NCBI RefSeq assembly: GCF_964204645.1
Contig: NC_134025.1
Span: 4,402,001-4,466,000, forward strand
DNA: 64,000 bases
DNA from: Tubulanus polymorphus
Taxonomy: Eukaryota > Animalia > Nemertea
Reading direction: 5' to 3'
In this document: one piece after another, positions 2,352-22,663 of the stretch
Position numbering within the stretch: position 1 is the first letter of the stretch
How the letters are laid out: each line of letters opens with the position of its first letter
Notes under the pieces: model-generated
Told to the model about the DNA's origin: nothing
What the model saw: only the letters and a program-made list of their open reading frames with translations
Database searches by the model: none
Program-made: the position numbers and the translations under genes

Positions 2352-4620
2352 GCCTGAAAAAACAGAGGAAACATAGTCTCATAATATACAGGAAACCCTG
2401 ATTTCAGACACTAAACACTCCTCACGAGAAATTCTCAAATATTTCAGATACACTTCTGCACATAAGTGGATATTGATTAATAACAAGGCAAGTCAATGGG
2501 GAGTGGCACAACCATATGATCCTTATGAATTGATCGAAAATATTCAGAATGCTAGACATAAATGTCAAACAATCATCAATTCATCATCTCCTATGAATTC
2601 AAAATTTAGTTTAAAACCAAATTAGTGTTAGGCCTAAATCTTTATCCAACACTAAAGGCCAGTTTCATAGTCGAGACTTGATTCCAAAAGTGATCTTAAA
2701 ATCTTAAGATAGGTCTTAAATTAAGTAGTTAGATTGGCTTTAGGCCTAGAGCTAAGTTGGTCTTAAACTGATCTAGGAATAAAACAGTACATTGTATTAT
2801 TGTCTATTCAATGCAACGTCATCCTAAAATCATTTTTTTTTTCAATTATCTTTTGGTTCTACACAAAATGAGGGTTTGTATCCAACATGAATATTTTCAT
2901 TGTCCAAATAAGGATATATTTCTTCTTCCTCTTTTCTATTGTCAATATATCCATCATTGCATACGCTTTTCATGTATGAAACTATGCAGCCATATTGGAA
3001 TTATGTGCATGTAGCCTTGTAATCATGCTGGCAGCGATGATCAAACTCGAAATGATTTCATAACCAAACCAGAAAATGAAATGATAAATGGCTTTATATT
3101 AAGATTACATTACTGGGAATACAGGCTTTTATAACTGCTAACAAAACAAACCTCATGGAAAAAAAGTCAGTTAATTCGTTATTTATGTACCTTGCCTTCA
3201 TAAAATATTTTCCAAAACTCAATGCATTAGTAATGAAACACATTCACCTGACCCCCTCAACCCATCCCAAAGCGGTGTTATTGCGTTGCAATAACATGAC
3301 CTTGTAAAGCTAGCTACCATATTGAATTATTCACAGCATACTGCCAAATATACCAACCTCAATGAATGCAACCTTGGGGGTGTAAATTAATGAATGATAA
3401 AAGGGAGATTGCAATACGTAATTAATCTTTAGACAAAACGAGACAAAATGATTTGGAGTTAGGCAGAATTTTTTCAATGAATCGGGCTGCATAATGAGAT
3501 ACACGATGACAGCTTACGAGTTGAGTCTCCGGGGGTAGTAACTCACAACACTCCCAGTAACCATCTGATGAATGAGTTCGCCAAGATGCTGTTGTCATGA
3601 CAACATTTGGTTCATTTTGAGAAGAAAAATTGCCCGAGTATTAAACATAACATCATACGCATTTAAATTGCATCTATTCGCTAATGTTGATTAAATAATT
3701 TACTTGAAATGGAATGAAAATATGGCTTTCTTAATGCGTCGGCATTCGTAATTGGAGTCGTGTATGTAATGTATGTTTACAATGAACCAATCCCAGTTTC
3801 ATTGATAAATTCAACGAAAACAATAGACAGCACTGCCATCTTTCAGCAGAATTGAACAACTCTAAGGCAATGTAGACTACAAATAATCAAACATAACGAT
3901 AGATGGCTTCACAAATGATTATGATACAATGAAATGTACCATTATATCAAATAGTTGTTAGACATACCTCGATTGTGTCAACTAAACTTAGTGCTATCAG
4001 GAGGTTTGTCCAAAAGTTTTTTACTCTAAGATGATAATTAATCCAAGAAAATAGGACTCTTCTTGTTAAGCTCAGACTTCTAAGAGTTTCCAAAAAACTG
4101 ACGTAAACATGTATGCCTATATTTTGTATAATGCTGCACGTCACAATTATAAATAAGGCATGAATAGATTTTTACAATAAATGGCTCAATGAATTGAATA
4201 AATTGCAATAAAAATCAATAACTTCCTTGTTGAAGTAATTTTTCGGAAAATAAAGGCATCCTGTATCCTGTGACTCAAATACGCGATCACATGAAAGTAT
4301 ACCCTAATACAGTACAGCAATATAAAACATACCAAACCTGTTTCTTCCTATTCAGTATTCAATGACAGAAAATATCAATTTGACACATCTACTGGTACTA
4401 GGCATAAGCCCTTGTAGGATATCACATTTGCGCAATTAGAAAGCATATTCAATGGAAAAACAACTCGGAGAAAAAATTATTTTCAAAAATCAATATAGAA
4501 TTTCTGAAATATATCAATATGTATGGTGGCTGATAAGGGCCATAGCGTAAAATTCCTGGTATGTAAATGAGGGCGCCAGAACGCCAGAACGCCAAAACGA
4601 AAAAAAACGTCCAATTTTCT

Positions 4621-5741
4621 CTGAAAGTTCGTTTTGGCGCGCCAAAACAAAGAAAATTCCGTTTTGGCGCCCCCGCCAAAACGAACTTTCATTTTGGCGC
4701 CCCCGCCAAAACGAACTTTCGTTTTGGCGCCCCCGCCAAAACAACGAAAAACGTCGAAATTTCTCTAAAAGTTCGTTTTGGCGCGCCAAAACAAAGAAAA
4801 TTCCGTTTTGGCGCCCCCGCCAAAACGAACTTTCATTTTGGCGCCCCCGCCAAAACGAACTTTCGTTTTGGCGCCCCCGCCAAAACAACGAAAAACGTCG
4901 AAATTTCTCTAAAAGTTCGTTTTGGCGCGCCAAAACAAAGAAAATTCCGTTTTGGCGCCCCCGCCAAAACGAACTTTCATTTTGGCGCCCCCGCCAAAAC
5001 GAACTTTCGTTTTGGCGCCCCCGCCAAAACAACGAAAAACGTCGAAATTTCTCTAAAAGTTCGTTTTGGCGCGCCAAAACGGAGAATATTCCGTTTTGGC
5101 GCCCCCGCCAAAACGAACTTTCATTTTGGCGCCCCCGCCAAAACGAACTTTCGTTTTGGCGCCCCCGCCAAAACAACGAAAAACGTCGAAATTTCTCTAA
5201 AAGTTCGTTTTGGCGCGCCAAAACGGAGAATATTCCGTTTTGGCGCCCCCGCCAAAACGAACTTTCATTTTGGCGCCCCCGCCAAAACGAACTTTCGTTT
5301 TGGCGCCCCCGCCAAAACAACGAAAAACGTCGAAATTTCTCTAAAAGTTCGTTTTGGCGCGCCAAAACAAAGAAAATTCCGTTTTGGCGCCCCCGCCAAA
5401 ACGAACTTTCATTTTGGCGCCCCCGCCAAAACGAACTTTCGTTTTGGCGCCCCCGCCAAAACAACGAAAAACGTCGAAATTTCTCTAAAAGTTCGTTTTG
5501 GCGCGCCAAAACGGAGAATATTCCGTTTTGGCGCCCACGCCAAAACGAACTTTCATTTTGGCGCCCCCGCCAAAACGAACTTTCGTTTTGGCGCCCCCGC
5601 CAAAACAACGAAAAACGTCGAAATTTCTCTAAAAGTTCGTTTTGGCGCGCCAAAACAAAGAAAATTCCGTTTTGGCGCCCCCGCCAAAACGAACTTTCAT
5701 TTTGGCGCCCCCGCTAAAACGAACTTTCGTTTTGGCGCCCC
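4621..5741 (+). repeat. Left TIR tandem array: about 8 copies of a 144-bp unit made of TTTTGGCG-(CCCC or nothing)-CGCCAAAA palindromes
   Basis: Units start at 4621, 4765, 4909, 5053, 5197, 5341, 5485 and 5629. Confidence 0.97.
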
Positions 5742-5820
5742 GGAAACGTGTCTACTCCAGATGCTGACATACAAATTATGTACATACGCATACGTACTCG
5801 TGCACGACCGCTTAATTATA

Positions 5821-8113
5821 ATGGACACCGTTCGGACTTGTATCCTTTTACGTAATAAAGACCAAGTTGCTCAACGGTCGATTTTGCTGTTGATCTTGTT
5901 GATGATCTTAACAGATTCCTCTAGTTGATGATACTGTTAGGAAGCTTTTTGCAGATGGGTACACAAATGCAGAAATGAGGATTGCCATGTTATCTAACTT
6001 CGGAATAACTATTAGGTACGTATATATAAATTCCATGGCCTACATCAAGATGGTCTAAGAATAGATTTTAATTGTCTGCAGCTACGTATGGGCACTGCCA
6101 TTTTTATTCAATATTACTCCTTATAATGATGTGATATAGTAGTTTAGTTCACAAACCGTCTTGTTTATTTTAAACTTTCAGTGAACGCCACCTCAAACGA
6201 CAATTGAATAGGTTAGGTTTGAAAAGAAACAACAATTACGTTCTCAATGACGTAACCGCTGCAGTCGAGGAAAGTAATCCGAATTTTTGAAGTGATGCTT
6301 ATATCTGATAGAAATTGAAAATGTCTTTTGGGTTTAAGATTATGTTCTCTGCATTATTACAGGTTGAGCTTGCTGGCAGCGGATGTTGCATGGGATATCG
6401 TGCTATGTCACAACGTCTCCGTCAACGCTACGGAATAAGAGCCCCTAGGTAAGATGTATGATCGGGTGGCTACCTACACGGTTAATTCCTGACATGATAA
6501 ATGAGGGCGCTAAAGTACCAAAACGCCATAACTAAAAAAACTTAATTTCTCGAAAAATATTTTTTGGCCAAATTGAAGAATTGTCAGTTTTGTTACTCCT
6601 GACAAAAAGAACTTTCGAATCGGCCAGCATATGTATAAATGTGTATTTGATTGATGTAAGACCTTTAAGATGAGATCTGGATCACTTCACTCATGTGTTA
6701 TATGATTGTTTACTTCTAGGTCTCTAGTTTCCAATATCCTTCAGAATTTAGACTTCGAAGGAGTACAGAATAGGACCCATGGAGTTTTAAGACGACGACG
6801 TTACTTTAACAAGGGTCCCAATTATCTTGTCCATCTCGATGGTTATGACAAGCTCAAGCCTTTTGGTTTCCCGATTCATGGGTGTATAGATGGGTAAACA
6901 TAATATATAATTGATATATCCTAAAAGATATTATTTCCACCTATCAACAGCAGTTGCTATAAGTTCAGAATTTGGTTTGTCGAACATGTTCATAAACACA
7001 GTCTATATTTAAAAGATTTTCCCGACGAATCCTTTGGTTAAGAGTTGGAAATACTAATAATGACCCAGAGGTGGTTGCGTGGTACTTTTTAGATTTCGTT
7101 CAGGACATTGAAGGTAGATAGAATTGTCATATATAAATACACAATGTGCCGAAATTATGCCTGGGAAAATTTATCTGTTATCAATCGTCGATTAAGATAA
7201 TACTCTGACCGTCATCTTTATATCATCATTCAGCAGTTCCTCGCTGCATCCGTATGGACGCTGGAACCGAAAATGGCAGAATTGCAGCGATTCAGAAGGC
7301 CTTTAGAGCAGAATATGACGACGAAACGTGCGTTCTTGTGGGTAGATCTACGAGTAATCAGGTTCGTGGTGTCATTAATATGGGTAGATTTGGACAATCC
7401 CCATTTCTGCGCTAGAACCAACTTAAGATACTTCAAAACTCACCAATTATTTTATTTTTCTTTGTTTTAAGCGCATTGAACGATGGTGGCGAAGTCTTCG
7501 AAACGAAGTTGTTCAGTTTTGGATGAACGTATTTAAAGATATGGAGGAAAATGGAAGTCTATCTACCGCGGACGTTGTGCACATGTAGGTTAAATACCCG
7601 CCTTTAAAGCGCGTTGCGATTTTTTGTGATCCACGTAGTAATTTCCCTTTCTCCAATATTTTTCAGTCAAACCTTAAGATACTGTTTTTTTGATTTGATA
7701 AATGCCGATCTTCAGGATTTCGTGCAGGAGTGGAATACACATGCCATCAGGCCTCAACGAAATGTGGATGTTCCACCCGGAAAACCTGATCTATTATACT
7801 TCTCGCCGGAATATTACGGTACGAAATACGCTGTATAAAAATGAGCATAGGTTTCTAAGTTTACGATGTTTTTATCACTTCTTGATAATACGAAATAATA
7901 TTTTCAGGCACGATAGACTACAAATTTCCAGTGGACGCTGGACTACTTCCGCAAATTCGAGAGGAATTTTGTAGTAAGCCGAATGAATCGAGAGGCTGTG
8001 ATCCGGACTTTTCAGCGATGTGTGATCTTATAACGAGGCAGGGACAACAATCAAGACCGACATCAACCCCAGAAGCCGCTGCTTTGTATGACTGGCTATT
8101 AACTCAATTCTGA
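5821..8113 (+). CDS. DDE transposase (integrase core), about 384 aa, 10 predicted exons
   Basis: Exons 5821-5829 (tentative), 5915-6015, 6182-6269, 6363-6448, 6720-6893, 7016-7113, 7234-7361, 7472-7584, 7667-7818, 7908-8113, all phase-compatible. Motifs: HTH-like GITISERHLKRQL, GYRAMSQRLR, GPNYLVHLDGYDKLKPFGFPIHGCIDGFSRRILWL (D1), RMDAGTEN (D2), STSNQRIERWW (E), WNTHAIR. One donor (6270) reads GAAAGT instead of GT. Confidence 0.9.
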
Positions 8114-8835
8114 GAGCATACATGTTAGAATCATTTTTATACGTATCTGTCCTGCACGGTTTATGTGTTGTCTGTTCATGATGTATTTCGAAGATTCAAA
8201 TATATCTATGATACACGTTACGCGTTGAAAAGAATATGATTGTAATTTTTCATGGATTCATGCGACTGTTTGGGCTTAGTAATACATCATACTAACACTA
8301 CCCATGTTTTAATTCGCTATCCAACCCCATCTTAAGTAGGTGTCTCAGAAATAGAATACGCGTGCCATCAATTTACATGGAGAATTATCTGCGAAAGCGT
8401 ACTCCAGTATCCGCTATTCTCAAAACGCTTCAGAATAAATTTGCGTATGGTTCAAAAAGATGTATTTTTGATTAAATTTATTTTGAGAAAGTTCTATGAA
8501 GCGGTTGTTTAAAAAGTGGTCTTATGGACAAGTCACATATCTTTCATCCTCGCATGCCAGGGGTCTGGTATCGCACCCCGAACTCGTTTCCACCACCCCC
8601 TGGCCTCACGACGCGTGATTTCATTACTGGTTGAAATACCTCCTTGTACGTTGATTGGTCCATTTAACGGGAAAATCAACAGAAGCCTATAATATCGTTT
8701 GCTTAAAGCGCTGTGATTGGTACGACCGGATTCTGGTCGGCTAGTAACGACTCCAACGACTCGCGAGGTCAAGGGGTTCGGGGAACACGGCTTTAGCTTA
8801 GTGAATTCGATTCCCACGACAGGTGAAGATGCATA

Positions 8836-9009
8836 CATTGGAACCTCGTTACAACGAACCTCTGGGGACCAGAAAATATTGTTCATTTTAACAGATATTT
8901 CGTCATATCCAGTGTGAAATTAATCAAATTGTCTAATGTGGGACACAATCTTGTATTTGTTATGTCCGATGAATCGTTGTATCCCAGTTAGTTATAACGA
9001 GTTCCACTG
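8836..9009. mobile_element. Tc1/mariner-pogo-type MITE nested in the transposon spacer
   Basis: TA-CATTGGAACCTCGTTACAAC ... GTTATAACGAGTTCCACTG-TA; a related inverted copy lies at 19717-19875. Confidence 0.75.
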
Positions 9010-9717
9010 TATCTCTATATGAATGTGCAATTTTGACAGTATATAATTTAATCGTGTTCGAATACGTGCCAATGACACTTTCGTACTACGATATCATTTG
9101 CAGCTCGAGTGAAAGTGAGACACCATGAAAGAACGAAAACGCAATGAAGTGAAGATATTTGAATATTTTAATCGAAGTATCAAAGTTTCTCTTAAAAGCC
9201 TTAAAACATTATCTACGTTTTAATACCGTGTTGATACAATATATCAATATGTACTTAAAGATGATTGTCTTACAATTTCGAGACAAAACATAACTTGACA
9301 GCAGAGAAGTGGCACCCCCAAATCGCCCTGTTTTCAATACAAACAAAAAACGTATTTGGTCATGATTGATTCCCTAATTTGAAACGACAAATATAAGGAG
9401 CAAGTTTAACAGCTCTCGGTAAGGTTTGACTCGAGAGTCAAGTCGGTTTTTTTCAATATTTCCAATGCTTTAACTCTAGAGTCAAACTTAACCGAGAACT
9501 GTAGAACCTGGTCAAAATGCACTGCATGAATAATTACTTCTATCATCAAAAGATCGTCACTAAGTAATTCTATGATAAAAGAAACGACATCAGGGCTGGC
9601 AATATTAAAAATAAACACACCACTTTTGGCCTAAACAAAAGAACTTAAACACGTTTTGATCCAACTTTGAAAATATGAAACTTACGTGGATTACGTCATT
9701 TCGTTTCTAGAATAATT

Positions 9718-12320
9718 TTATACGACGTCCATAACCCAAACATTGCTCTGGAGAATATTATCGAATTCTTGTTTCAGTTCGACGTATTCGTCATATGTTT
9801 CTGGTAACTCCAATATCTGGGCACATGTTCGAGCAACTGGAGCTCGTTGGAGACCGTCTACCTTAGTAAAGGTCACGTCAATCTTTTGGCAGTTACAGAT
9901 GTCAGAACCAGTACAATAGCGGAGGAACTTAGACAACATGCTTTCATCCAATGATCTGACATATCTCTTCAGTAACGTAGCAACATTTGACTGAGGAGCT
10001 GACAAAACGTTTGGAAAAGAAAGTAATTCTACCACTTTGCGACAGGAGGGTTTAAGATCCGTACAAAGATCGAGGTACTGTTTATATGATATTGTTACAT
10101 ATTTCTGTATCATAGGTTTTATACAATCAACTATAAATCTCGGCTTTTGCACCAATTCCTGGTGACTAATTTCCCGAATCAACATGGAGAAGTTCTCCTT
10201 CGTAGGAAGTTTCCGACATTCATATCCCCCCAGTATGTCTATTATCTCTTCGACGTCATTTGCTTCATCATCGAAATTAGCCAATGCGCGTCGAAATACC
10301 AGCTCCTCAGACGGAGAAACATATTTCAGGAATGATTCGACCAAGTCTACGCTATCATCCTGCTGGAAGAACAATTCGGAAACAAATGGCTGCGCGAGGA
10401 ATATTGGGAAATATGATGTTTCCTGAAATCCTTTACTGATGATGCGTCCTACAGCCTCCCATTTCTCTGTGCCATAATCATGGCGTATGAGAGGGATCAT
10501 CTGACTACTACCCGTCATACATTGCTTTCTAAATTCTGACCAAAATTCAGTAAGACACTCTCGAAAGACACCGTGTCCTTCTCCGGCTTCAACATTTCCA
10601 TTAGGGAGTATCATTCGAGCATTTATTATTTTCCCCATCACCGATGCATCACAAAAAGCGTTTATCATATCTTCGACCATGGCTGTTCTGCGAACCAGAA
10701 GGTTGTATTCTTCCCGTTCAATGCGATTAATCTCTTCTTGTGATAACTCGCCACTAGTCTGTACTCTGAATTGAATTGTAGGCGTATCAGGCTGTATCAA
10801 TTCGAAATCATTAAAGTTGATATCTGCTATACCATCACGGGAATGTGTATCATTTGCACCCGTATGTATGCCAACAGCACCGGTAGGCACATAACCAGAC
10901 TGAATCCCGGCCGCAAATGGAGTTGAAAGTGTATGGGCAGATTGGGTATGCGTAGTTAAAACGATAGGTTGAATATCACTACTAGCCGAAATTGTAGATG
11001 AGGCTGCTGGCGTAAACGACAATGCCGGTTGCATCAACGAAAACATAGGTAAAGTTGACTCAGAAATCGGTGGCTGGTGGGTATTAGCAAGAAAGGATGA
11101 CATGGATGGCAAGGATGTTTCATCATCACTATCGTCAACTAAAACAGTTGTGTGAAGATAGAGCCTAATAGGGTTTGTTTTATGTGCTGCGATGTAGGCC
11201 TCTAGACCAAAAACATTACCACACTCAAGATAATCACATAACCGATTACCATTGAAATTTGCTAAGTAATAGCTCACATCATTGATTTTTAGGTTCATCG
11301 CATTCGATTTGCCGTCTGGAAAAAATAGGTTTAAGAACTCCATGGTTAAGGCCGACAAGTTCATTTCTTTTTTCAGGTCCAAAGTGTGTGTCCCCCCACC
11401 CTTGCTTGCAGTAACTAGTACAAAGGTCCCGCTTTTGATGGCGTGTTTCCAACCTAGTTTTATTCGTCGTGTATCTTTCTCTGCATTTTTTGTCGTCATT
11501 GATTTCTTGGTGCCGGCCTTCCGTTTTTGAAATTGCGTTCTCAACCTGCACAAAACACTAGATGATCCTGAAAATGAAATAATAAAGGAAAGTGTTATAT
11601 ATTTCAAGTAAACAATTTACAAATTTGTAAAAAGATCCATTGATCGCAGACCCGTCGTAAGTCGAATCGCAAGGATAGAACAAGTTCTATTTCAGCGATG
11701 AGTTATGCGTCAAATGACCTTTGGACTCGGCGATGATTGAATCGTTGTCGATCTGACTGTGACAAACGAATCGCCAATCGGCGGTCACGTGTTTACTACC
11801 GCTGTTTTTACGACGAGATGGTCGTCGTAAGTCGACCTCAGCTTAGCTTAATCACGAGAAATAGGCACAAGCCTTCATAACCTCTCTAAAAGTATAACCC
11901 TCTGATAGCACAATCTCATGGACAGAATTGAATTAGCGTAACGGTCAGTGACAACGGTCATGAAAGTTGGAATTAAGCACGTGATTTATCTTAAAACTCA
12001 AATTATTACCTGCACTAGACACATTTTCATCTTCTTTAGGCTGAGAATTTACTATCCTACACCTATTCCTTAGCCGGACTCTATCCCCGATAGCTGTAAC
12101 TCCTGCTGCTTCAAAATCATTATCTGTCATGGTCGTGACGTCACTAACACCTATCTGGATGAGAAATTAAAATATGATACATTTTCAGAAGTTATGGCCC
12201 TATAGCATTACCAATCGGGGCAAGTCTGTGTATACATAAAGTATTGAAACACGGTACCTTATTTTCGAGAAACTTTGCAATGTATTGGCCTAATCCCAAT
12301 TCTAGGAGTATGTTGTCCAT
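9718..12320 (-). CDS. SAM-domain plus HECT-domain E3 ubiquitin ligase-like protein, 685 aa, carried by the transposon
   Basis: Exons 12320-12258, 12154-12010 and 11567-9718 (2058 nt, in frame, GT-AG). SAM-like N-terminus MDNILLELGLGQYIAKFLENKIGVSDVTTMTDNDFEAAGVTAIGDRVRL. HECT motifs EAGEGHGVFRECLTEFW, KFLRYCTGSD and catalytic Cys in PVARTCAQILELPETY near the C-terminus. Confidence 0.9.
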
Positions 12321-12644
12321 CTGTAAAGAAGACATTTACGAATTAACGCCATTGAATGATTATAATTCATTAGTTTTCACTAATGCAGACCGAGCAAAAT
12401 AATCGTCGCTTACAATGATTAGGCAGTACGAGAGAAACGGCTCACGTCGAAAACTTAGAATACTACCAGTACGTGTTATATTGCCTGCGCATACCAGAGA
12501 ACGACATCGGTTTTTTTAATATGTTTTCAGCGGCCGAAAATCAATCGATTTTTAAAATATATTGGCATATTAAAGAACAAAGTTTATGAATAGGCCTATG
12601 TGAGCTAAGCAATGCGAGGCAATGTATAGGATTTAAATGATACC

Positions 12645-12882
12645 AGGGGCTGATCCAGCATTTTTTAAGGAGTGGGGGTCGAGGGGGTACGGTGGTGCTC
12701 TGCTGGTCATCCCGAGAAATCTTAAAAACTTAGTCCCATTTTCATGAATTGTAAGCGTTTTTAGGCGCTACTTGATCATCTCATACATTTAAGATGTAGG
12801 CCTAACATGTCTACTTTGAAAAGTAGTTTTCCAAGTGGGAGGGGTTCTCGAGGACCCAAAGAAAACCCCTGCATTTAACCCT
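12645..12882. mobile_element. Degenerate CAGGGG...CCCTG non-autonomous element within the transposon
   Basis: Ends CAGGGGCTGATCCAGC ... GCATTTAACCCTG with G-rich internal tracts resemble common invertebrate hAT-like MITEs; diverged. Confidence 0.4.
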
Positions 12883-13020
12883 GAATAGGCTACATACCTG
12901 TTCGTTAGTCCGTTAATGTATACACCACCACCATCGACAACGATATGTATTATCACGTATACCTAGATCCGACTCGTAACAACAAAATCGAAGGGAGACG
13001 AATCGGATTTTCAAAGAAAG

Positions 13021-14310
13021 TTCGACGTTTTTCGCTGTTTGGCGGGGGGCGCCAAAACGAAAGTTCGTTTTGGCGGGGGCGCCAAAATGAAAGTTCGTTT
13101 TGGCGGGGGCGCCAAAACGGAATATTCTCCGTTTTGGCGCGCCAAAACGAACTTTTAGAGAAATTTCGACGTTTTTCGTTGTTTTGGCGGGGGCGCCAAA
13201 ACGAAAGTTCGTTTTGGCGGGGGCGCCAAAATGAAAGTTCGTTTTGGCGGGGGCGCCAAAACGGAATATTCTCCGTTTTGGCGCGCCAAAACGAACTTTT
13301 AGAGAAATTTCGACGTTTTTCGTTGTTTTGGCGGGGGCGCCAAAACGAAAGTTCGTTTTGGCGGGGGCGCCAAAATGAAAGTTCGTTTTGGCGGGGGCGC
13401 CAAAACGGAATATTCTCCGTTTTGGCGCGCCAAAACGAACTTTTAGAGAAATTTCGACGTTTTTCGTTGTTTTGGCGGGGGCGCCAAAACGAAAGTTCGT
13501 TTTGGCGGGGGCGCCAAAATGAAAGTTCGTTTTGGCGGGGGCGCCAAAACGGAATATTCTCCGTTTTGGCGCGCCAAAACGAACTTTTAGAGAAATTTCG
13601 ACGTTTTTCGTTGTTTTGGCGGGGGCGCCAAAACGAAAGTTCGTTTTGGCGGGGGCGCCAAAATGAAAGTTCGTTTTGGCGGGGGCGCCAAAACGGAATT
13701 TTCTTTGTTTTGGCGCGCCAAAACGAACTTTTAGAGAAATTTCGACGTTTTTCGTTGTTTTGGCGGGGGCGCCAAAACGAAAGTTCGTTTTGGCGGGGGC
13801 GCCAAAATGAAAGTTCGTTTTGGCGGGGGCGCCAAAACGGAATATTCTCCGTTTTGGCGCGCCAAAACGAACTTTTAGAGAAATTTCGACGTTTTTCGTT
13901 GTTTTGGCGGGGGCGCCAAAACGAAAGTTCGTTTTGGCGGGGGCGCCAAAATGAAAGTTCGTTTTGGCGGGGGCGCCAAAACGGAATTTTCTTCGTTTTG
14001 GCGCGCCAAAACGAACTTTTAGAGAAATTTCGACGTTTTTCGTTGTTTTGGCGGGGGCGCCAAAACGAAAGTTCGTTTTGGCGGGGGCGCCAAAATGAAA
14101 GTTCGTTTTGGCGGGGGCGCCAAAACGGAATATTCTCCGTTTTGGCGCGCCAAAACGAACTTTTAGAGAAATTTCGACGTTTTTCGTTGTTTTGGCGGGG
14201 GCGCCAAAACGAAAGTTCGTTTTGGCGGGGGCGCCAAAATGAAAGTTCGTTTTGGCGGGGGCGCCAAAACGGAATTTTCTTTGTTTTGGCGCGCCAAAAC
14301 GAACTTTCAG
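13021..14310 (-). repeat. Right TIR tandem array: about 9 copies of the same 144-bp unit, inverted
   Basis: Reverse complement of the left-array unit; nine repeats visible in the sequence and in the 12913..14364 ORF translation. Confidence 0.97.
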
Positions 14311-14674
14311 AGAAAATTGGACGTTTTTTTTCGTTTTGGCGTTCTGGCGTTCTGGCGCCCTCATTTACATACCAGGAATTTTACGCTATGGCCCTTATCA
14401 GCCACCATAAATATGTCATATGTCATGTAGTTTCATGCAAACATAACAAACCTAAGCCTAATTAATAGGCCTAAGCGATGCCAGAACAGAATGGAGCAAC
14501 TTTGATCATTTTAGCGTGCCAGCGGATGGATGGAGTGATCTGAGAAAAAGCTTAGCGAGGATTTGTAGTGTTTGTGTCGATCAGCAGCAGATCAGGCGAG
14601 AAGACTTGTCATCAATGTCACATTCTTCTTGTTCTCCTTCTTTTAGTGGGTTGTGAAATAAAAATCATTCATAC

Positions 14675-15307: not shown

Positions 15308-18300
15308 ATGTTGGTTTTATTTGAAACTGCGGCCGGTTATGCCGTATTTAAGGTAAATCGTTATCGTTTAATATCTGAAGTAGCAATTACAATATGCGTT
15401 ATCATTAATAGTCCATTCTTTTTCACTAAATATGTGTTGTAGCCTGACTATTCTCTCAATTCTCAAATTCAATTCAAATTAATTTCGTGTATCGTATGGT
15501 TAAACAGTTTGTTTTCATATGATTTCAGCTACTCGATGAAAAAAAATTACAAGAAACAGAGAACTTGTATTTAGATTTTGAATCTCCAGAGAAAGCTAAT
15601 AAAGTGTAAGTTGCTGAAGGTAGATCGATTGACTTATATTGCGGCCTTTTTTTGTGATATGCTCTTTAGTCTTTGTAGATTGAATTAACTATGTCTTTGT
15701 CTTTGTGAAGTGTTATAGTTTACCATTTAAAGTAATTAGCATATATATGAGCTAACAGTCTTATGCTATTTTCATTTTAGAGTCAAATTAAAGCATTTCT
15801 CAAAATTCAATGATACCACAGAAGCACTTGCAGGTATTTCAATTTAATCCTTAATCAGTGAAATGAAATGGATGATATCTGTAATTAATCGATCACAAAC
15901 ATATCTTTTCAGCTGTCACTGCTGCAGTTGAAGGTAAAATGGGAAAATGCTTAAAAAAATTACTGAAAAAGGTTGTAGCCCAAGAAGCGCAAGAGAAACT
16001 TCTAGTATCGGATTCTAAATTAGGTGGTTTAATAAAGGTAGGTTAATTCTCAAGAATAGCCAATTAAGTGACTGGAAGACTGATATTAATCTCGGTATTT
16101 AGACTTAACAAGTAAAAACCCACAGTTGATATCAAAGCGTTTATTGTCTGACAGTTTCGGAGTTTTGAATAAGAAATGCCTTATTTCTAACCAACAATAC
16201 CTCGGTGATTTTGTAGGAAAAGCTAGACATGCAGTGTGTTAGCAATTCTGCTGTCCATGAATTGATGAGAGGTATAAGGTCACAAGTTAACAGCCTAATT
16301 ACTGGTCTAGGAGAAAAAGAATTATCTGCAATGTCTCTAGGTCTTGCCCACAGGTAGGCTTACTTCACGTATGATAAATGGTGCGAATTAGCCTCATCAT
16401 TATAATTTTCCATGTACAGTAGTTCAATTTGAATGATAGAGGTCTGCAGCTCTAGGAGGTGCTAAGTAAACAGTAATTAATGCAAGATATTTGTTTCAGT
16501 CTTTCGCGTTATAAATTAAAGTTCAGCCCTGACAAAGTGGATACTATGATCGTGCAAGCTATTTGTAAGTGTGTCTTCAAATGTAGTTACAATATTCTTA
16601 AGTAACCACTGAATTTCAATTGTTTTATCAATGAATTCCATCTTATTTCTACTCGATCTTCAGCATTACTCGACGATTTGGACAAAGAATTAAACAATTA
16701 CGCCATGAGAGCCCGTGAATGGTATGGTTGGCACTTTCCAGAAATGGGAAAGATAGTTTCAGATAATTTAGCTTTCGCTAAATGTGTTAAAAAGATGGGT
16801 AAGTAGTAAAGTAAATATTTTGAGGTATTATATAAAACAATTGATACTAATGTTGGTGTCGAATGTTTTGAATACCACTGGAGACGATAACAATTTAGTA
16901 TTTGTTGTTTTTAGGAAGTCGAATAAACTGTGCAGAGACTGATTTTTCATCAATTTTACCCGAGGAGGTCGAAAGTGAAGTCAAAGAAGCTGCGGAAATA
17001 TCAATGGGAACTGAAGTATCAGAGGAAGATATCGAAAATATCACTTACTTATGTGATCAGGTGAATTGTCACGGCTTTAAATGTTATCTGTATTTATAAT
17101 ATATCATTGTGAGTTTTACGGTATATGTTTATTGATTCAATCTCTGTTAACAGGTAATTGAAATCACAGATTATAGAGCTCAGTTATACGATTATCTAAA
17201 AAATCGAATGGTTGCAATTGCTCCGAATCTTACTGTACTCGTCGGTGAACTTGTCGGTGCTAGACTCATTTCACATGCAGGTAATACTCGTACTCTATTT
17301 ATTTCGCATTTCATATTCGATGTTTATCAAATTTTTAAAACCAATGATTTGATAACTATCTTTGCTTCAGGCTCTTTAATGAACTTGGCTAAACATCCAG
17401 CATCCACAGTTCAGATTCTCGGCGCCGAGAAAGCTTTATTCCGTGCGTTGAAAACGAAGCACGATACTCCCAAATATGGTTTGATCTACCACGCTTCAAT
17501 GGTTGGCACAACTAGTGCCAAGAATAAGGGAAAAGTAAGTAATTTTCGACTGGTAGTCATTATATGTCTTTGACTTATTGGCATCGTGTGCATTTAGCTT
17601 ATGTTTGCCCATTGTTTTGTTTGAAGATGTCACGTATGTTGGCCGCCAAATCTTCACTAGCTATTCGAGTAGATGCTTTAGGAGAAGATGTCGGAACTGA
17701 CCTCGGTATGGAACATAGAGCAAAGTTAGAAGCGAGAATGCGTATGCTAGAAGAAGGCGGGGTAAGTTAATGATATAAAGTTGAAGCTAGTAAAAGGCAA
17801 TACGCTAGAAGATTAATTTGGTTCCCTTTGATGTAAAGGAAATCTGAAATTATCAAACAACTATTTCAATTCGTTTACATATATATTTGTTCATAGGCCA
17901 AAAAGATCAGCGGTACCGGTAAACAAAAGGCAAAATGGGAAAAATATGTAGGTAAGGGCAATGTTGAGACTTATAATGCGGGCGCTGACTCAACTTTACC
18001 CAGTATACCGAAAAAACGTAAACTTGATGAGGAAGAAGATACTAAACATGTGCCAAACGGTGATTCTCCAGCAAAGAAAAAAATCAAAACTGAATCTGAA
18101 GAAGCCACTGAAGGTATGTAAAATGAATAAAAGAAAAAAAAACGACAAAATTCAAATGGAGACTGAATAATGATGATAATTTTTCAGCACCATCTTCGGA
18201 AAAGAAGAAAAAGAAAAAGAAGATTAAAACTGAGGCTGATACTACCTTGGATAGTACTATGGAAGGTATGTTTAGTAATTTCCGTCAAATAGTATGGTTT

Positions 18301-19716: not shown

Positions 19717-19875
19717 CATAGTGGAACCTCTTTACAACGATTCATCAGATATAACAAATATAGAATTTTGTCCCAAGTAAGACAATTTGATTTATTTCAT
19801 ACTGGATATAACAAACTTTTGCTTAATGAACATATTTTCTGGTGCCATAAAGTTCGCTGTAACAAGGTTCCACTG
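19717..19875. mobile_element. pogo/Tc1-type MITE, second copy
   Basis: AGTGGAACCTCTTTACAAC ... GTAACAAGGTTCCACTG-TA; the interior is the reverse complement of 8836-9009. Confidence 0.7.
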
Positions 19876-20520
19876 TATACTTTAGCAAAAGGATAAGAGA
19901 ATTTAGAAAAAAAAACTTCATTGAACTCATAAAATACATAATTACCATGTTAGAAAATGGTTGCATGGTAGTGCATTTTTATTTACATAATTTACATTTA
20001 CAACGTAACTATAAATTCAATTACTCAGCAATGGATCACTAACAGAGATATTGCCATCACACACAGCCATAAACATTTGTTCCGAATATTCTGACATTTC
20101 AGATATGTCAAATACCGATACTGAAATATTTTCAGAGAGCCATGTCACTCGGGGCCCTTAGCTCTATACATGTATATTTAGTTGTCCAGCAGCAGTAAGT
20201 CTTTGTATCATTCACAGAAAACAGTTCATTTTCTTTAGCTACCATCAGTATCCATTTGCTTTTTATAGTTATCTTCATCTCCTTTGATGGCATCACGGAC
20301 CCTCTGTCGGCTTTTCATGATTTGCACTCTATTTGAAATAACTTGATTTCGCGCCAGGATAAAACCATATAAGCCGCATCCAAATATTAATGACCTGAAA
20401 AATGTATTTTTACATCTTTTTACAATAATATTAATAATTTTTTTAACAGTTTCACCGAGAGAAACATCCCAAAAAATCGATTTCAGATAATAAAAATAGA
20501 TATTAGACTACTATCTATTA

Positions 20521-21787: not shown

Positions 21788-22663
21788 ATGGACATCAATA
21801 GAAACCCGCAACCACCGTTACCAGCATCGCATCTACGATTGTTACTGAGAAGCGGTATTTTTGCTCGCTCCATAAACATTATTTTCAAATCTGTTTCACT
21901 TTACCTGTGATAGGCGTTTGTCTCAATATTGTTTAGTATTTTCGTCTTTCGTAGAATGTCTGACAGCCGGCAAGCTATACACCTTTTTATCCTCATTGCA
22001 CTATCGGATATCATCTATCTTACTAATACATTCTTAGACGGTCCATTTCGTCACCTAATCTTTAGAGCGATCTACGTAGATATGTTATCTCATCGATACG
22101 AGCTGTTTCCAATCTGGAACTGGCTCCGAATTGCTTCCTACAAGTCTTCGGTAACAATTCGAAATTAGCTGATAGTTCTCACAGCAGTTATTAGATGTCT
22201 TTACATTCTGTTTCCGTTGTGGTCACGACGCTATATTGATAGGAAACGGGTTCATATTTCTACAGCCATAATCATAATGATATCAGCGGCTCTTTACGTC
22301 AATCGTTATTACGCATAGGCTCGAGAAAATGTCGAGGTGGTACCACTCCAATTTTCCAGAAAAACTATTCAATGGTCATTGGATATTAACAAAGATGAAG
22401 ACGCTTCCGCAAAACAAGCAAAAGCGACGCAATTAGTTTTAATCACGACATCTGTTTATTTAGTATGTGAATTACCGACCATCATCTCGATAGTATATAA
22501 CTATTTGCGCGCAGGTTGGGACCATGTGCTGCTCAAGTCTATATTTGCTTTTACCGATAACCTAACACCGATCGACTCGGCCATTAATTGCTTAATTTAT
22601 CTGATCGCTAGTAGCTCCTTTCGGTCAACGGTCAAAATATTATGCAGGAAATATGTTACCTAA
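21788..22663 (+). pseudogene. Intronless class A GPCR pseudogene (FMRFamide/peptide-receptor-like)
   Basis: TM1 VIGVCLNI with a frameshift near 21930; TM2 LIALSD; TM3 RN*LIVLTAVIRCLYILFP (TAG at 22166); second TAG at 22316; ECL2/TM5 apparently deleted; TM6 YLVCELP; TM7 DSAINCLIYLIASSSFR. The 5' end is approximate. Confidence 0.8.

Follow-up and report, generated by a model that had tools for sequence, protein, structure and literature searches.

Does an animal cut-and-paste transposon carry a ubiquitin ligase of its own and, if it does, which protein would that enzyme act on? The question is posed by a 9.9-kb element in the genome of the nemertean Tubulanus polymorphus, within a stretch of 64,000 nucleotides (NC_134025.1, positions 4,402,001 to 4,466,000) that we call the window and whose numbering is used throughout. 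A first-pass annotation, made from the letters alone, had described it as a transposon with a SAM-HECT E3 ligase gene. We find that the element is intact, multi-copy and young, that it is a member of the IS3EU superfamily, and that its HECT gene is very probably a dedicated accessory gene, of a kind not found described in the literature searched. The assignment as an accessory gene rests on co-amplification with the transposase gene, recurrence of the same convergent pair in relatives, purifying selection in one informative pair and conservation of the catalytic Cys.

An intact IS3EU element

The element spans 4522-14409 and is flanked on both sides by the 6-bp target-site duplication (TSD) AATATG. 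Both ends open with the letters TATGGTGGCTGATAAGG, and the tips, TATGG on the left and CCATA on the right, fit TAYGG...CCRTA. Its terminal inverted repeats (TIRs) extend over ~1,220 nt, with no mismatch in the outermost 271 nt and 15 over the first 1,220 nt, and consist mostly of tandem 144-nt units (8.0 copies left, 9.2 copies right), so that the boundaries and identical ends first proposed stand. Open reading frames (ORFs) of 388-518 aa across the TIRs were rejected as genes, being produced by the 144-nt unit.

IS3EU is defined by TA..TA termini and mostly 6-bp TSDs (Kojima & Bao, 2023; PMC10045372), and its ends have been given as TAYGG..CCRTA (Kojima, 2025; PMC12730594). The transposase, for which a full D-D-E triad had been claimed, has it in D144, D203 and E240, matches Pfam rva_4 (PF24764, E 1e-38), lacks an HHCC motif and has its first catalytic Asp at residue 144. 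Its core motifs HxDGYDKLKP, GCIDGFSR, RxDxGTEN and STxNQRIERWW match the Repbase rows IS3EU-1_DR, -1_CGi and -1_HM, taken from the supplement of PMC10045372 and compared by eye, without a tree. Termini, 6-bp TSD and transposase motifs all fit, in agreement with the initial assignment to IS3EU, and no second transposase of this kind was found within the window.

The transposase differs from NCBI model P0005 by one residue, and for sister copies NCBI also has an isoform whose start would correspond to 5761. At least seven of its nine introns were seen as joints in run X4 (whose kind, DNA or RNA, is not on record), among the joints listed (15 of 63). Intron 3 proved to be of the GA-AG rather than the GT-AG type, with the donor context AG/GAAAGT. 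The GA donor also occurs in a long X1 contig, which has three differing letters over 6050-8081 and none at the donor, and hence appears to be the family state. In animals, GA-AG introns have been described whose donor has AG upstream and A downstream (PMC7072748), and the intron 3 donor shows this context; being weak, it might throttle transposase output. A GT lies 4 bases downstream of the GA donor and would shift the frame.

A predicted ligase with three folded domains

Convergent to the transposase gene is a ligase-like gene of three exons (12320-9718, minus strand), with GT-AG at both introns, that encodes 685 aa without an internal stop. Read at first as SAM, linker and HECT with its Cys, the protein kept its open frame, HECT domain and Cys651, and its SAM domain was recovered through the model of a homologue, but the plain linker gave way to a folded ubiquitin-like (UBL) domain. 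The HECT exon matches Pfam PF00632 (E 8e-9), and Cys651 is located 34 residues from the C terminus. The SAM domain of the window protein gave only a weak Pfam match (E 0.055, below the cut-off, over half of the domain), with a profile match from residue 28. Folds were taken from an AlphaFold model of the full-length homologue P0142 (mean pLDDT 80), in which residues 1-62 form a five-helix SAM (Z 8.3 with the tankyrase SAM, 8.1 with the BICC1 SAM), and the HECT is bilobal, matching UBR5 best (VIA Z 22.6, rmsd 4.4, 314 aligned) and HUWE1 with a Foldseek E of 5e-12. With most solved HECTs this domain shares 9-17% identity, and with a C-lobe solved in isolation 22%.

For the middle domain of the window protein itself a confident fold is predicted (pLDDT 87), and almost all structures close to it are of the ubiquitin-like type, which indicates that the supposed linker holds a third domain. 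The Polycomb ULD/RAWUL structure 5fr6 came top (Z 8.3, rmsd 2.6, 80 aligned), tied with USP11, ATG5 and Ddi2 (Z 8.1-8.3), and 5fr6 stands among the top structural rows for the UBL domain at Z 8.3-9.4. Searches with the middle domain gave nothing below E 0.18 in Pfam and only unnamed eukaryotic clusters in the ESM Atlas. The domain bears a strongly conserved surface motif, IELGW...QVR..GGG.R, and, of the parts of the protein, is the likeliest to serve in targeting. As modelled, the architecture of the protein is SAM-UBL-disordered-HECT.

Of 154 aligned rows (the window protein, five close relatives and 148 HMMER matches), 147 keep the catalytic Cys, within the motif R-x-P-x-x-(H/R)-T-C-x-x-x-L plus an acidic residue at -3; the C terminus of the relatives is typically -MD(I/V)(V/I). 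The HECT fold and the conservation of the Cys predict an active E3. An X4 contig breaks off at the acceptor of exon 3, and a further 205 nt are placed elsewhere, compared to the 208 nt of exons 1 and 2, so that the support for ligase splicing is indirect.

Association of the ligase-like gene with the element

Raw DNA reads from another individual (X5; ~12% of the run was read) cover the transposase bins at a mean depth of 47 and the ligase exon-3 bins at 54. Since 1,934 Mb read against 178.5 Mb of contigs caps single-copy depth at 10.8, there are at least ~5 copies per haploid genome, a lower bound. NCBI has 10 loci of the window's transposase in T. polymorphus, on 7 chromosome-scale contigs and several of them incomplete.

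The same gene pair was found in other animals, which bears out the linkage that the first-pass annotation had proposed as a check. We examined 25 metagenome loci that encode a HECT relative. A convergent transposase follows it in 11; the downstream DNA is shorter than 1.7 kb in 10 and, in the remaining 4, extends for 3.3-4.9 kb but contains no transposase. Grouped by BLASTN links these make 12 families, seven with the pair, three too short and two without it (L010/L011, and the 22% identical L025). The pair is enclosed by inverted arrays or TAYGG-type tips in L001, L004/L005 and L016, and in L021 is preceded by a left tip much like that of the window. A phase-0 intron in the SAM domain has the same position in all four loci checked.

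A full HMMER search with the HECT part gave 2,144 clusters (50% identity) at E <= 0.001, of which 335 reached E <= 1e-30; named relatives, drawn from 30 looked-up entries of which 10 were transposases or first matches, are from sea cucumber, acorn worms, fishes, frog, beetles, abalone and clam. The closest are ~40-46% identical, and relatives often occur as dispersed near-identical copies (13 members in Astyanax, 5 in Tribolium). IS3EU elements have been published from zebrafish, beetle and acorn worm, among other hosts (PMC11934779). None of 60 pattern matches in viral contigs was related, and a HECT tree of 19 rows, built without host HECTs, left 9 of 16 branches open.

That the HECT gene might instead be a recent host-gene capture or a passive passenger in the window copy has a precedent in Selaginella GingerRoot elements, which capture host gene fragments (PMC6839031), and the NCBI ligase model P0001 is indeed a single-member cluster. 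This explanation is largely refuted and very improbable, given equal depth over both genes, the presence of the convergent pair in seven of the 12 families of other animals, the common SAM intron position, and nearest relatives that are this divergent and often dispersed multi-copy genes. The proposal of a dedicated gene, rather than a one-off capture, is therefore upheld.

In L010:284-1571 the HECT gene is followed by a TATGG tip with no transposase between, and L010 is possibly a ligase-only non-autonomous derivative. In a coral-type family (L012:5262-5991, L016, L020, L021) a 5' piece of the transposase and the start of the HECT gene appear to be duplicated and inverted on the element's other side, which suggests that rearranged TIRs took in coding DNA.

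Selection and co-divergence

The ratio of nonsynonymous to synonymous substitution rates (dN/dS) could be computed in 12 of 13 comparisons, all of them between metagenome relatives and not within the window's own family. Between L004 and L005 it was 0.19 (0.10-0.32) for the HECT, 0.27 for the N-terminal part, 0.21 for the linker and 0.15 for the transposase; the HECT is thus under purifying selection in this informative pair, rather than at the value of about 1 that would have spoken against a maintained gene. For L001 and L002 the HECT value was 0.13 with dS saturated, and transposase dS was undefined.

Divergences of ligase and transposase were uncorrelated among families (Mantel rho -0.10, 419/720 permutations with six families; rho -0.19, 3,254/5,040 with seven). 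Between L004 and L012, for example, the transposases are 61% identical and the HECTs 28%. The lack of correlation suggests that ligase and transposase have been swapped between lineages.

Proposed mechanism and candidate substrates

On the evidence of the element's ends and of known DDE chemistry, the transposase would bind the 144-nt subterminal units and cut and paste the element with a 6-bp stagger. The ligase would be brought into the nucleus by its basic patch and oligomerise through its SAM domain, its UBL domain would select the target, and the HECT Cys would transfer ubiquitin to it from a host E2. Were the target a host silencing protein, its ubiquitination could keep the element expressed and mobile. 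We tentatively prefer this reading as a whole, that is, an IS3EU/GingerRoot transposon whose SAM, UBL and HECT ligase attaches ubiquitin to a host protein of chromatin or silencing, and give it a little under an even chance. Its weakest step is the target: a host factor of chromatin or silencing, to which we give slight preference over the transposase, is plausible to about the same degree. The ligase and transposase sequences, whose divergences do not track each other, suggest a host target. So may two analogies: the combination of a SAM and a RAWUL-like fold resembles parts of PRC1, which too uses SAM polymers; and fungal IS3EU elements fill the accessory slot with other enzymes (PMC12730594).

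A dedicated ligase could also have the element's own transposase as substrate, a somewhat less probable reading that nonetheless deserves serious consideration. Both kinds of function, anti-silencing and control of transposase turnover, had been suggested in the first-pass annotation. The very stable post-integration complex might be ubiquitinated for the host p97/proteasome to strip it for gap repair, or the ligase might limit transposase levels, as ClpX, which acts on MuA, does for that transposase. A pair that is fixed and co-amplified, and the strongly conserved surface motif of the UBL domain, would fit such a partnership; the uncorrelated divergences, and the presence of other enzymes in the same slot of fungal IS3EU (PMC12730594), would not. 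A complex prediction for transposase residues 20-393 with the basic and UBL part of the ligase (150 aa), run without alignments, came out at 0.33, where the mark is 0.34 (0.38, 0.32 and 0.33 in single runs; three controls 0.00), a result given no weight in either direction.

Several observations weigh against a host-directed active ligase as the fixed partner of the transposase. Four of the 15 loci with enough downstream DNA (L010, L015, L018, L025) are without a convergent transposase. In six other within-family comparisons, of partly decayed copies, dN/dS intervals reach or pass 1 (HECT 0.43-1.49 in four comparisons, transposase 0.81-0.87), and the co-phylogeny test covered only 6-7 families near saturation. 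The NCBI model P0001 begins at residue 244, and no ligase joint is among those listed for run X4. Foldseek with the middle domain gave no match at E <= 0.001, the Polycomb match is shared with USP11, ATG5, Ddi2 and other ubiquitin-like folds, and both ligase activity and host substrate are predictions from fold and sequence. Finally, canonical HECTs carry Phe at position -4 from the C terminus, where the window protein and 119 of 143 non-gap relatives have Met and 10 have Phe, which speaks against an active E3; and two residues before the Cys the window protein has Arg, as found in 17 rows, compared to His in 127 of 151 relatives.

The Met at -4 and the Arg before the Cys, the marked divergence from solved HECTs, and the reported non-functional HECT of the divergent host protein G2E3 (PMC3673628) would all suit an accessory scaffold or adaptor, serving for instance in tethering or target-site choice, with a HECT that is catalytically weak or dead. 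We consider this quite unlikely, since the Cys, its surrounding motif and the acidic residue at -3 are kept across the alignment and the HECT dN/dS is low in the informative pair. Also unlikely, if less so, is a bolder form of the preferred reading, in which an IS3EU E3 built of Polycomb-like modules (SAM and RAWUL-like) would enter PRC1 or similar SAM polymers and ubiquitinate host silencers, with the orphan HECT genes as its copies and G2E3-like host genes as possible descendants.

Further features of the locus

Coordinates are collected in Table 1. The content of two convergent genes given for the element was right as to both genes but overlooked a high-copy repeat nested between them, of which a second copy (81%) lies at 19733-19878; a 128-aa ORF within it (8533-8919) had no match in Pfam. 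Another, moderately repeated segment with raised depth and loose ends is present in ligase intron 2 (11640-11850). The degenerate TIR copy in transposase intron 4 is possibly an autoregulatory binding site or a relic of a nested non-autonomous copy.

Table 1. Positions of the features of the element and its two genes in the window.
Feature	Position	Strand	Evidence or remark
Left TSD AATATG	4516..4521	.	
Left TIR: TATGG tip and 8.0 x 144-nt subterminal array	4522..5741	+	
IS3EU DDE transposase, 10 exons, 393 aa	5778..8113	+	Letter-identical to NCBI model P0125
Transposase intron 3, non-canonical GA-AG	6270..6362	+	Joint in run X4
Degenerate TIR copy (tip-proximal part and first array unit) in transposase intron 4	6484..6616	+	Score 117 vs shuffle maximum 43 (200 shuffles)
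Transposase catalytic triad D144; D203; E240	6838-6840; 7257-7259; 7478-7480	+	
High-copy nested repeat between convergent 3' ends	8430..9000, limits approximate	.	Read depth up to ~1,800 vs ~50
HECT domain; Cys651 at 9823-9825; C terminus ...WVMDVV	9718..10716	-	
Ser/Thr-rich low-complexity linker, predicted disordered	10717..11139	-	pLDDT < 50 in matching stretch of homologue P0142
Conserved ubiquitin-like (beta-grasp) domain, residues ~100-212, basic patch N-terminal to domain	11140..11478	-	
SAM domain: exon 1 (12258-12320) and exon 2 (12010-12154)	12010..12320	-	
Right TIR: 9.2 x 144-nt array and CCATA tip	13001..14409	-	
Right TSD AATATG	14410..14415	.	

The arrays (4590-5741 and 13015-14341) contain 64 palindromic TTTTGGCG..CGCCAAAA sites and 85 matches to TTTSSCGC, which we take to be the E2F consensus, compared to 4 in the 49.6-kb right flank. 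The transposase and ligase genes both begin immediately inside the arrays. The likeness to E2F sites may be due to chance, as the units in the arrays of other families are unrelated.

When the element is excised in silico (4508-4521 joined to 14410-14451) a possible 54-nt GT-AG intron appears on the minus strand; no continuous host reading frame was found across it. A host gene interrupted there would diverge from a presumed NOP58-like gene at ~15309. By eye from ORF translations, we take the neighbours to be this NOP58-like gene (15309-18250, plus strand), a GPCR-like exon (22319-22663, plus strand) and a Trio/kalirin-like gene (27954-50878, minus strand).

Significance and comparison with known systems

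Few animal transposon proteins that act on host defences are known, and the literature searched yielded no cut-and-paste superfamily with a complete HECT E3 as its fixed second gene. Such a gene would account for a large family of orphan proteins (335 clusters at 50% identity, E < 1e-30) annotated as uncharacterised host genes. If the Polycomb-like reading were true, selfish DNA would possess a ubiquitin-based anti-silencing system, and hundreds of orphan HECT genes in fish, insect, mollusc, echinoderm and hemichordate would be element copies. With its frames intact, its two ends present and sisters that are nearly identical, the window copy makes ligase function directly testable.

The element resembles IS3EU/GingerRoot in its TA..TA termini, its 6-bp TSD, its lack of an HHCC motif and a first catalytic Asp within 100-300 residues of the N terminus, but its TIRs of ~1.2 kb contrast with the 100-150 bp of the Selaginella type of GingerRoot (Cerbin et al., 2019; PMC6839031). 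The Repbase label 'IS3EU-1_CGi_2p' denotes a second protein in a known IS3EU. With the fungal TET-bearing IS3EU it shares TAYGG..CCRTA ends, a 6-bp TSD and an accessory enzyme gene opposite the transposase; the fungal accessory genes are, however, an alpha-kinase (in opposite orientation) and a TET/JBP dioxygenase, in place of SAM-UBL-HECT (PMC12730594). HECT is absent from the main texts, as far as available, of PMC10045372, PMC12730594, PMC6839031, PMC11934779 and PMC5844308, and from the available supplements of the first two. A full-text literature search likewise gave no description of HECT cargo in IS3EU; its scope did not extend to the Repbase entries and the Kojima 2019 review, which may note the domain.

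A divergent 'GL-Metazoa' HECT family has been described (Grau-Bove et al., 2013; PMC3673628) and may be that of the window ligase, and transposons are never mentioned in the available parts of two HECT surveys (PMC3673628, PMC2837046). Like the class IV HECTs (UBR5/EDD, G2E3, GL-Metazoa), the window protein has a highly divergent animal HECT, with UBR5 as its best fold match. Unlike G2E3, it is without N-terminal PHD/RING-like zinc fingers, has SAM and UBL domains instead, and retains the Cys. It also differs from class IV HECTs in being transposon-borne.

DNA transposons are known to carry proteins of the ubiquitin and SUMO systems, namely Ulp1, OTU and F-box proteins (Zisupton, Ginger1, Mutator, Helitron). 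In those elements, as in that of T. polymorphus, an enzyme of the ubiquitin system is a fixed accessory of a DNA transposon; theirs are proteases or adaptors, whereas the window gene would encode a complete thioester-forming E3.

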